A DNA stretch of 64,000 nucleotides, from NCBI GenBank assembly GCA_013375475.1, contig JABXKD010000005.1, positions 1 to 64,000 of the forward strand. Reading direction: 5' to 3'. Below, piece after piece: positions 55,599 through 57,881 of this stretch. The notes below the pieces were generated by a model that searched no databases, was not told the origin of the DNA, and saw nothing but the letters and a program-made list of their open reading frames with translations. Position 1 is the first letter of the stretch; each line of letters starts with the position of its first letter. The DNA comes from Promethearchaeota archaeon (GTDB taxonomy: Archaea; Asgardarchaeota; Lokiarchaeia; Sigyniarchaeales; SOKP01). Position numbers and translations under genes: made by a program.

Positions 55599-57881
55599 AT
55601 AGTAAAGGTAAAGAACCCTGAGGAGATCGCGCATCTCATAACTGCGGGTTCATATGAAAAAAAGCGGCTATTTAGTATTATAGCCCATATAGATCACGGT
55701 AAAACAACTGCAAGCGACTATCTGTTAAGAAGAGCAGGATTAATGCGTGAAGAAGATGCCGGACAGCTCCAAATGACCGATTCAGATTTAGAATAAGACT
55801 TACTTTTTCTACTGAAAGAAGAGGAGCAGGCAAGAGGAATTACTATTTTCACGAGTGTAGTTTTATTAGCTTTCAATGACCCTAGAAAACCAGATGACGA
55901 CGAACCATACATCCTTCAAATTAACGATACTCCTGGGCATATTTCTTTTACCGGAGAAGTATCGCGTGCGCTTAGAGGTAGCGATGGCGCTATAATTCTC
56001 GTTGATGCTTTAGAGGGTGTCATGACTCAAACGGAAACCAATATTCGATTATCTGTTGGCGAAGAGTTTTGTAAACCTGTTCTATTTATAAATAAAGTAG
56101 ATCGCTTAATTAGCGAGCTTAAGTTAAGCCCAGAAGACACTTTTGCGAAAATTGACAAAATATCGAGACAAGTTAATGAATTAATCAAAAAGATTAGACC
56201 TGAAGGATCAGGTTGGGGCGTCGATTTTGCTAAAAATAGCGTTGCCGTTGGCTCAGCGAAGCATGGGTGGGGTTTTACATATGAGATTTTATTGGAAAAA
56301 GGTTTAAAGCCACAAGATGTATTCGCAAAATATAAAGAAGGCGATATTCAATGGTTGAGAGATAATCTTCCACTTGACGAGCCCATGTTAAGGATGGTTG
56401 TGGATCATTTACCTAATCCTGTAGAAGCTTCAAAGTATAGAATCCCTCATATATGGGGGGGCGATTTAAACTCAGAACTCGGACAATCTCTTCAAAAATG
56501 CGATCCTAAAGGTCCTCTCTATGGCATGATTACAAAAATATTCTTAGATCCACGAAGAGGGTATCAAGCTACTCTAATAGGTCGCGTTTTTTCTGGTACA
56601 TTCGATCACACTGATTCAATTTATTTGATAGGCGGTAGGAGTACAAATCGAGTAAAACGATTAGGTGTTATGGAAATAACAGATCTTTTAGATATTCCCC
56701 GAGTTCCAGCAGGTAATTTATTTGCCTTATACGGGTTTATTTGCCCATCTGGAGAGACATTTATGTCTGCAAGTGACGTACCAAAAGATAAGGAGGAAGC
56801 ATACCAATTACCCACCTTTGAAAAAATCCAATACGCCTGTGAACCCGTTGTTTCAAGAAGTATAAAAGCCCAAGATCCACAGGAGATAGATAAATTGACT
56901 ACAGTAGTAAACAAGTGGCTTCAAGCAGATCCAACTGCGATGTATCGTTTAGATAAAGAGTCTGGAGAATTTATATTAAGCGGAATTGATCCGCTTCAAA
57001 TTGAGATACTTACAAAGCGAATTAATAATCAAGTGGAAATTAATATTGGAGAGCCGATTATAGTATATCGAGAAAAAATAACCAAGAGAAGCAGAGATTA
57101 TTACACAAAATCAGCTAACACACATAATCGCATTTTGTTATACATTGAACCACTAGACGAGAAAACGGAAAAACTAATTGAGTCTGGAAAAATAACAGAT
57201 CTGATGAATGAAAAGGATAAAGCTAAAATCTTGAGAGAGGAAGCTGATTGGGACGCGAAAGAAGCTAGACGAATTGTTGATGTGTATCAAGGAAGCTTAC
57301 TCGTAAACGGTACCTCGGGATTACAACGATTCGATAAAGTTAAATCGTATTTAACGGCCGCTTTTAGGGATTGGCTTGGAGAATGTATTCTTGCGAAAGA
57401 ACCAGCCGCAGGATTTAAAGTTGTTTTCACAGATATGACAATTCACGAAGATACAAGGCATACATCATATGGTCAAATCGCTGGAATGGCTTTTTCAGCA
57501 ATGTCACTAGCTATGTTGGACGCTGGACCTCATCTTTTTGAACCCATTCAGAAAATTGACGTGAAAACTCCAGAAGGGACTGAGGGACCGGTAAATGCTA
57601 TTATTAGCAAGCGACGTGGTAAAATTACAAACGTAATTCCCGAAGGAGAGTACGTAAGAGTTCAGGGTGAAATTCCCGCAGCTGAAACTATTGGTATAGC
57701 TGACGATATTCGAGGTTCTACTCAAGGAAGGGCTTTTTTTGGATACGAATTTTCGGGATTTGAAAAAGTACCAAATAGTTTAGAAGAAGATCTTATCCTC
57801 GAAATTCGCAAACGTAAAGGTATGCCAGACCACTTGCCAAATACTTCAAGTTGGGATCGGTTTATTTACAAAAAGACTTAG
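55599..57881 (+). CDS. fusA: Elongation factor EF-2 family GTPase, two exons (55599-55787 + 55818-57881; 750 aa), probable ATA start
   Basis: AHIDHGKTT; joined switch I MTDSD|EEEQARGITI; DTPGH; NKVD; EPIQ; RGSTQGRA. Confidence 0.9.
55788..55817 (+). other. Candidate 30-nt BHB-type intron in EF-2 mRNA (contains in-frame UAA)
   Basis: Central helix UCAG(55782-85)/CUGA(55812-15); bulges AU^U and AA^G; intron hairpin UAGAAUAAG-ACUUA-CUUUUUCUA. Confidence 0.85.

Follow-up and report, generated by a model that had tools for sequence, protein, structure and literature searches.

The stretch analysed here, referred to as the window, comprises the first 64,000 nucleotides (nt) of contig JABXKD010000005.1 of the Promethearchaeota archaeon assembly GCA_013375475.1 (Lokiarchaeia). 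On its plus strand, at 55599-57881, it carries the gene of the archaeal elongation factor 2 (aEF-2), and the reading frame of this gene is interrupted in the switch I codons by an insert of 30 nt (55788-55817). We consider it highly probable that this insert is an archaeal intron of the bulge-helix-bulge (BHB) type, in the relaxed HBh' form, located in the aEF-2 pre-mRNA. The evidence consists of the exact junction, the predicted RNA fold, its compensatory changes among relatives and a set of synonymous exon sites that go with the insert.

An aEF-2 gene interrupted in switch I

The plus-strand frame that starts at 55599 encodes a translational-GTPase N-terminus, from the P-loop AHIDHGKTT on to QMTDSD; after the insert it resumes with EEEQARGITI and stays open to 57881. 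Exon 1 (55599..55787) has 63 codons, the last of them encoding DSD, and is colinear with the N-termini of orthologues (MVKVKNPEE...). Exon 2 (55818..57881) has 687 codons plus the stop and extends from the RGITI of switch I through domains II-V. Matches to Pfam GTP_EFTU fall on both sides of the insert, followed downstream by the EF-G domains II to V. The top-scoring model for the interrupted gene is aEF-2, and the gene aligns end to end with solved archaeal EF-2 chains, exon 2 beginning at residue 66 of 6q2d_C. The insert itself corresponds to ten codons, the third of which is an in-frame TAA (55794..55796). In the list of open reading frames (ORFs) the start of the gene is put at the ATG at 56022, and 131 N-terminal residues (63 + 68) are missed. 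The preliminary description of this DNA, made from the letters alone, had reported the insert with its stop codon, the return of the EF-2 spacing upon removal of the insert and the 131 missing residues; frame, contigs and orthologues agree with it.

Removal of 55788-55817 gives back the orthologous sequence exactly. As judged from the alignments, the junction 55787|55818 is fixed unambiguously, because most orthologues, and likewise C109, a contig co-assembled with the window, run directly from the DSD codons into (E/D)EEQ codons. The preliminary description had also considered that DNA reads might lack the insert. The insert is real DNA, because contigs from two studies cover it without difference: a contig of run X3 spans 55769-55969, and in run X4, from another study, contigs 55653-55798 and 55769-55934 lie over it, all with 0 differences. 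An artefact of assembly or sequencing, or a chimeric contig, would be in keeping with the different nearest relatives of the exon-1 and exon-2 sides (see below) and with a breakpoint that adjoins a stretch highly conserved among strains. It is contradicted by the short contigs of the two studies, which bridge exon 1 and intron as well as the intron and 117-152 nt of exon 2 with 0 differences and so argue against a chimeric assembly, and by the presence of the same insert in 21 other assemblies. We give an artefact a probability close to nil.

The interrupted gene was then compared with the EF-2 genes of relatives, which in the protein search were metagenome-assembled genomes labelled Promethearchaeota or Promethearchaeia, plus a few with other labels. 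In the alignment to solved chains the HxDxxH pattern of the diphthamide loop is retained, with T-S replacing R-G. According to the available text of PMC6143161, in Lokiarchaeota the histidine is retained by the bona fide aEF-2, which has serine or glutamine at the glycine position, and a paralogue, aEF-2p, is devoid of the diphthamide loop. The second EF-2-like gene of the genome, on contig C99, is 34% identical to the interrupted one, and no HxDxxH-type motif is apparent in it by reading. Because the loop is kept in the window gene and the C99 paralogue shows no such motif, the interrupted gene is, on the evidence of its alignment, the bona fide aEF-2, that is, the translocase itself. A first search, covering the aEF-2 rows of 37 relatives, showed that two of them (G023 and G015) share the shortened open frame of 694 amino acids. 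Both genomes are 99-100% complete, the interrupted gene is their only aEF-2, and the other match in each is a paralogue 33-34% identical.

At the orthologous start-codon position (55599..55601) the window gene has ATA. The 19 relatives shown all have ATG there (19/19), and G088 has GTG. The ATA lies within a DNA contig of run X3 (55560-55739, 0 differences), and no canonical in-frame start was found between the upstream stop at 55590 and the P-loop. A 10-nt intron following the out-of-frame ATG at 55589 was considered as a rescue of the start codon and rejected, as by reading the four preceding bases cannot pair with the intron bases that the motif would need. Further upstream, a conserved A/T-rich box (55531..55550, plus strand), found also upstream of the gene in the relatives shown, has a promoter-like appearance and presumably acts as promoter.

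The ATA and the stop-bearing insert could also mean that the gene is dead or dying in this organism and that the real aEF-2 is the intron-less copy on C109. That contig (locus L002, 682 nt), which belongs to the same bin, encodes an aEF-2 fragment whose protein is 87% identical to that of the window gene. However, bin contamination is 6.41%, and in a DNA run the C109 sequence also forms a loose end of its own, which is what a co-occurring relative would give; C109 probably stems from such a relative, binned together with this genome. In relatives, a single aEF-2 is accompanied by one paralogue, and a second aEF-2 is absent. All 687 codons of exon 2 form an open frame, with a ratio of nonsynonymous to synonymous substitution rates (dN/dS) of 0.04 against two sisters, at dS 0.42-0.45, the comparison values in intron-less pairs of clade A being 0.06-0.08. 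By this measure the gene is under purifying selection and is not decaying, a decay that the preliminary description had held possible. Moreover, the same insert is found in 21 other genomes, and all 17 of them with the start printed have ATG or GTG. A dead gene is hence very unlikely.

Conservation and predicted fold of the insert

The distribution of the insert was analyzed in two ways. A pattern drawn from the variants was searched in 161 genomes of the class, with the reversed pattern as a control. It matched 21 of the 161, all in the family of the window's genome, while the control gave 0 matches. There is one site per matched genome (in G108 as two overlapping contig ends), and every match sits between the DSD and EEQ codons of aEF-2. 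The second analysis was a motif-free census of open-frame length around the first 200 residues of exon 2, in which 125 of the 135 genomes of the family were matched and several rows, ended by contig ends, were uninformative. The open frame measures 694 or 697 amino acids in 19 genomes and 689 in G076 and G071; in G120 the intron is present with an N-filled gap downstream, and the longer exon 2 results from a scaffold gap with duplicated flanks. The census returned the set of the pattern search plus G071, giving a total of 22 intron-bearing genomes of the 125 matched (four in genus g1, two in g21, fifteen in g22 and one in g19). Every sequenced variant contains an in-frame stop, which is TAA as the third codon in all 20 site-A variants. 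In G076 (L089) and G071 (L142) the switch I intron is displaced by 6 nt in the upstream direction, so that it follows the TD codons and not the SD codons; these two site-B variants have TAG as the last in-frame codon of the insert.

The minimum free energy (MFE) fold of 55760-55835 agrees with the RNAalifold consensus of 19 sequences. It consists of a distal helix GCUCC/GGAGC, a helix UUCAG/CUGAA, a three-base AUU bulge and a nine-position intron hairpin with a five-base loop. In the central helix H, the exon strand UCAG (55782..55785) is predicted, from the fold and from covariation counts, to pair with the intron strand CUGA (55812..55815), 100% of the cells being paired. The 5' bulge AUU (55786..55788) contains the predicted cut after 55787. 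It is followed by the intron hairpin h' (55789..55811), with stems at 55789-97 and 55803-11, a loop at 55798-802 and 8 of 9 pairs formed, the ninth being a U.U. At the 3' splice site AA|G (55816..55818), the predicted cut after 55817 is in an internal loop and not in a closed 3-nt bulge. The distal exon-exon helix is formed by GCUCC (55766..55770), at synonymous sites of the Q-L-Q codons, and GGAGC (55823..55827), in the E-E codons. All these features are on the plus strand. The intron is thus laid out as 1 nt, a 9-position stem strand, a 5-nt loop, a 9-position stem strand, a 4-nt helix strand and 2 nt.

Two elements of the motif are present, namely a 4-bp central helix made of the exon end and the 3' part of the intron, and a 3-nt 5' bulge between H and h'. 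Cutting 2 nt 3' of the central helix on each strand leads exactly to 55787|55818, the junction that homology fixes independently. When random genome positions were examined for a central helix of four Watson-Crick pairs combined with a stem in which 8 or all of the 9 positions pair, the junction being fixed at 30 nt, 64 of 2,000,000 had both. The preliminary description had drawn a strict two-bulge BHB, in which a pair U55781-A55819 closes the AAG as a second bulge. Its UCAG/CUGA helix, AUU bulge, hairpin and GCUCC/GGAGC helix are recovered here, and its cut after the second bulge nucleotide coincides with the junction of the intron-less orthologues; the closing pair is not. The lone U55781-A55819 pair is unfavourable (-8.5 kcal/mol, against -13.0 without the pair and -14.0 for the MFE), and a strict hBHBh' with a second 3-nt bulge closed by it was ruled out by energy. 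Because this lone pair costs energy, the motif is modelled as the relaxed HBh' or bulge-helix-loop form, a form described in the available text of PMC6379350.

A self-splicing group I or II intron was rejected, as the insert has only 30 nt and there is no Rfam match at E up to 1 within 55400-56000. The genome contains no other copy of the intron: a fuzzy search allowing up to 7 substitutions returned the intron itself and one chance-like match with 7 mismatches. No tRNA gene was found in the window.

Comparison of the homologous Lokiarchaeia genes, which the preliminary description had proposed, gave the insert in 22 genomes and the fold kept by compensatory change in 21. The covariation set was made of the 37-nt cores of 21 genomes (17 distinct rows), in one alignment register chosen by us. 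Standard pairs occupy 96.4% of the cells, as compared with 28-48% when the partners are slid. Four pairs have changed on both sides, which was reached by 3 of 500 shuffles, and the covariation score of 0.148, versus 0.062, was reached by 0 of 500. Within the hairpin h', 94.8% of the cells are paired and 3 of the 9 pairs have changes on both sides, the other variation being located in the loop. At the shifted site the helix strand is CUGU, which faces ACAG in G076, so that one pair becomes A-U, and ACGG in G071, with one G.U pair. These compensatory changes, including those of the two genomes with the shifted intron, support the predicted hairpin and central helix.

The exons flanking the insert also differ between bearers and non-bearers. 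All five pairs of the exon-exon helix can form in 17 of the 19 intron-bearing rows versus 2 of the 59 intron-less ones, and the two exceptions among the latter are the nearest kin of G015, itself a bearer. Of some 12 phylogenetically independent pairs, about 10 associate the helix with the intron and 0 show the opposite (median p 0.002). The sites that differ most between bearers and non-bearers lie only from -22 to +9; all of them are synonymous, and most are in the predicted helices. An intron-dependent synonymous constraint of this kind can hardly be accounted for if the RNA structure serves no purpose, and exon synonymous sites appear to have been recruited as a clamp. Two positions are outside any helix of the model. 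Position -16 (55772) is A in 18 of 18 intron-bearing rows, and position +3 (55820), which goes with the intron, is C in 67% versus 6%.

Same-build inserts and the proposed splicing

Inserts of the same build occur in other GTPase-motif codons. The aIF2-gamma gene of this same genome (G000, contig C33, eIF2_C domain), which is on the minus strand, contains 30 nt between the P-loop codons for GHVDHG and KTT (22268-22297 in plus-strand numbering of C33; 1469-1498 of locus L111). This homology-confirmed insert has an in-frame TAG and splits the lysine codon (phase 1). In seven relatives the insert is 29 nt long, and other relatives read straight through; in many more genomes of the family the aIF2-gamma open frame stops near the P-loop. 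In aEF-2, stop-containing inserts are present in the P-loop of six relatives at three positions. AH|ID is occupied by 30 nt in G088 (L092), G134 (L143) and G083 (L144/L047), ID|HG by 30 nt in G072 (L145) and by 31 nt in G015 (L107), and HG|K by 30 nt in G065 (L147/L074). G088 and G015 carry a P-loop insert plus the switch I intron. By reading, the 30-nt P-loop inserts share the layout of the intron, four of their bases being complementary to exon bases 2 nt before the cut, and the 31-nt insert of G015 has no clean fit to this layout. The cut rule, also by reading, holds at site B, at the P-loop sites of G088, G134, G083, G072 and G065, and in aIF2-gamma. Locus L047 has, in addition, 329 extra nt that are a duplicated 3' fragment and not an intron; at 2962-3090, about 200 nt downstream of the gene, a fragment repeats the 3' end of aEF-2 with 65% identity across 43 residues.

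These inserts bear on two explanations in which the 30 nt stay in the mRNA. If the ten codons were translated, the TAA being read through or reassigned, the product would have a longer switch I loop, and the in-frame length of 30 nt would allow for it. Nevertheless, the variation among bearers tracks base pairing and loop, not codon position, and in the site-B variants the stop is TAG. The reading frame is shifted by those same-build inserts that measure 29 or 31 nt. The 29-nt aIF2-gamma insert splits a codon as well as shifting the frame, and read-through is therefore ruled out there. Besides, the insert would fall in a conserved effector loop, solved aEF-2 chains being gapless from the first exon-2 residue. 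We regard read-through as extremely improbable.

The ribosome could instead hop over the insert. The known bypass systems, phage T4 gene 60 and the mitochondrial 'byp' elements, have matched take-off and landing codons and, immediately behind the take-off codon, a stop. The insert is like them in being short, in having a hairpin and in reaching a stop shortly past the last sense codon, and in most bearers the first codon of exon 2 (GAC or GAT) specifies the same amino acid as the last codon of exon 1 (GAT). However, this genome and G015 have GAA as the first codon of exon 2, unmatched to the take-off codon, and the stop is two codons past the take-off codon, not adjacent to it. In aIF2-gamma the same-build intron splits a codon in phase 1, and by eye no glycine codon is present at its 3' end. 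Hopping would also leave unexplained the 4-bp helix between exon and intron, the cut geometry on both strands and the compensatory change at the shifted site. Translational bypassing is, in our opinion, very unlikely indeed.

For removal of the intron from the RNA, the host would need an endonuclease and a ligase. The genome has two EndA-family ORFs of about 200 residues, on contigs C215 and C133; by reading, one has catalytic-looking Tyr/His/Lys stretches and the other is without the histidine, which fits an alpha and a beta subunit, as far as the sequences tell. The first is best aligned to the Aeropyrum pernix chain 3p1z_B (residues 17-200), without gaps through an N-terminal loop region that we take, with the backing of a figure legend, to be the Crenarchaea-specific loop. 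RtcB is encoded as well, on contig C211 (560.7 bits). From sequence alone, then, the host appears to have an EndA able to cut relaxed motifs together with the RtcB ligase. The available text of PMC5829648 states that Asgard archaea carry an (alpha-beta)2 EndA whose L1 insert is linked to broad specificity, and that of bioRxiv 10.64898/2026.10.13.758758 reports two EndA paralogues in 44 of 60 Asgard genomes. With ARAGORN, only 29 tRNA genes were found in a bin rated 100% complete. Introns, at several positions, interrupt 14 of them and measure 10-77 nt, plus two doubted calls of 552 and 1623 nt. This suggests that many tRNA genes are too interrupted to be called, and the result agrees with the heavily interrupted tRNA genes pictured in the available part of the same preprint.

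According to the BHB-intron reading, in the transcript the last bases of exon 1, UCAG, would pair with CUGA near the 3' end of the intron; the nine-position hairpin of the intron would stack on this central helix, leaving AUU bulged, and the distal GCUCC/GGAGC helix would keep both exons together. EndA would cut after 55787 and after 55817, and RtcB would ligate the exons, which would restore the DSD-EEEQARGITI of switch I and eliminate the TAA. Cleavage and ligation are the presumed steps of this scheme. The intron probably does nothing for the protein and is a tolerated element that has been repeatedly gained or lost.

Several observations weigh against splicing as just outlined. The 3' splice site lies outside a closed 3-nt bulge, and cleavage there relies on an assumed broad specificity of EndA. 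The fold of the single sequence is no better than that of shuffled ones (z -1.19). The sequences compared are kin, and the covariation cells count sequences, not events. The ATA, as opposed to the ATG or GTG of all compared orthologues, makes the expression of this particular copy uncertain. No spliced RNA turned up in the 22 runs of the run search, in which X20 is recorded as RNA and X19 is tentatively taken as RNA. X19 covers 55855 onward only. The sole RNA contig at the junction, from X20, is 92% alike and starts at 55818, and its upstream loose end is identical to DNA of intron-less clade-A relatives; it comes from an intron-less relative and therefore says nothing on splicing. Finally, a genome-wide scan for BHB motifs that join ORFs was not enriched over a parallel-pairing control (942 vs 869), nor was a genome scan for the 29-33-nt build (332 vs 326 in the control). 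Structure alone therefore does not identify such introns, and only homology-checked cases are claimed here.

Arrival of the intron and its significance

A quick-search tree of 78 distinct rows, built on the initial 1380 nt of exon 2, requires the intron state to change 14 times or more; as the tree is unrooted, gains and losses look alike on it. The window gene falls in a well-supported clade of 12, none of whose other members bears the intron. Compared with its sister L004, it differs at 115 of 1380 sites in exon 2 and at 44 of 186 in exon 1, where synonymous sites are saturated (Fisher p 6.5e-9); four control pairs gave p values from 0.03 to 0.5. Over the 94 nt at the 3' end of exon 1, the intron-bearing G142 is the best match (88%), ahead of the sisters (78%).

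The DNA upstream of the gene is different too. In five relatives the gene of a CCA-adding enzyme adjoins aEF-2. The window has at 52664..55518 about 2.85 kb of extra DNA, which is absent in the sisters between the upstream neighbour gene and aEF-2 and has a remnant of the box upstream of aEF-2 (52580-52663) as its left boundary. This segment includes the gene of a 4Fe-4S protein (52751-53857, minus strand), an uncharacterized ORF (54207-54851, minus strand) and, directly upstream of aEF-2, a free-standing ORF of 197 residues with a LAGLIDADG domain (54913..55506, plus strand; PF14528, 27.9 bits). The loci compared contain only one other copy of the LAGLIDADG ORF; it belongs to the intron bearer G142, where it too lies upstream of aEF-2, and is 56% identical over the full length. 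The ORF is thus linked to 2 of 22 intron-bearing loci and to 0 of about 57 intron-less ones, too few to count as an association. Among solved structures no meaningful match to it was obtained (best E 0.63). A weak second match to the ORF is found in the window at 60497-60733 on the minus strand (32% over 77 residues, E 3.6e-5).

These comparisons suggest, as the most likely history, that the 5' end of the gene was replaced by recombination with an unsampled intron-bearing donor, the right-hand crossover being at the intron, and that the intron most likely arrived together with exon 1 and the approximately 2.85 kb of upstream DNA holding the LAGLIDADG ORF. A more far-reaching proposal, which we put forward as a doubtful one, is that a mobile class of minimal BHB introns colonises GTPase-motif codons (P-loop and switch I of aEF-2, P-loop of aIF2-gamma) in one family of Lokiarchaeia, with a homing-like installation at the DNA level in this genome: the LAGLIDADG endonuclease would cut the intron-less switch I allele, and repair from the donor would co-convert the tract from the endonuclease gene through exon 1 to the intron. 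If true, a BHB intron would for the first time have a demonstrated route of arrival. For tRNA introns, the arrival route is still open according to the available text of bioRxiv 10.64898/2026.10.13.758758.

Cyanophage psbA reportedly offers a case of collaborative homing, in which an endonuclease-less intron is accompanied by a neighbouring free-standing homing endonuclease. The likeness to the aEF-2 locus consists of an ORF-less intron beside a homing-endonuclease-like gene, the segment between them having a foreign history. In contrast to psbA, the intron described here is of the BHB type and not group I, the ORF is nearby in only 2 of 22 bearer loci, and its role as endonuclease is putative.

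In the tRNA and rRNA of archaea, BHB introns are commonplace. As to genes for proteins, the available part of PMC2738675 states that, as of 2009, cbf5 was the only one with confirmed BHB splicing. The cbf5 intron, which occurs in Crenarchaeota (Aeropyrum, Sulfolobus and relatives), is alike in being a BHB-like intron in a protein gene, in the hetero-oligomeric EndA and in its patchy distribution with inferred gain and loss, as far as that text goes (PMC2738675). The introns reported here differ in being in aEF-2 and aIF2-gamma of Asgard archaea (Lokiarchaeia) and not in cbf5 of Desulfurococcales or Sulfolobales. Their architecture is constant at 30 nt, one gene is interrupted at five positions or more, the intron is marked by a recombination signature, and a distal exon-exon helix replaces the adjacent exon helix. 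Whereas the splicing of cbf5 was shown experimentally, according to the same portion of PMC2738675, that of aEF-2 is what we infer.

The relaxed HBh' introns of tRNA genes in Crenarchaeota and Asgard archaea, as they appear in the available texts of PMC6379350, PMC5829648 and bioRxiv 10.64898/2026.10.13.758758, share the motif, the size range and the presumed enzymes. Here, by contrast, the intron is in the coding region of an mRNA, without a tRNA body, and the exons would be held by a helix of the coding sequence. The HAC1/XBP1 introns are likewise small and in a coding region, are removed by a protein endonuclease at stem-loop sites with RtcB-type ligation, and change the product from a truncated or other-frame form to full length. 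Their endonuclease is IRE1, not EndA, and follows another structure rule; they are regulatory, and no regulation is shown here. The available text of PMC4687415 covers XBP1 mRNA splicing by IRE1, and a title cited in PMC6379350 names RtcB in HAC1 splicing.

Full-text literature searches, a scope that leaves subscription journals and supplementary files outside, found no BHB intron described in a protein-coding gene of an Asgard archaeon, and in the available part of PMC6143161, which deals with Asgard EF-2, introns are mentioned only in the reference list. The aEF-2 introns would add, after cbf5, a second and much richer case of archaeal mRNA splicing. They would provide a clean system for studying the way in which splice sites are displayed to EndA in an mRNA, where a tRNA body is lacking, and an opening on how often such introns are gained or lost (at least 14 changes of state) and on how they arrive, given the breakpoint at the intron and the adjoining LAGLIDADG gene. 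For annotation, gene callers truncate or split these genes, which may distort EF-2 marker sets and the phylogenies built on them. For the organisms themselves, the consequence would be that 22 species, from the archaeal group nearest to eukaryotes, depend on an intron of this kind for an essential, single-copy translation factor.

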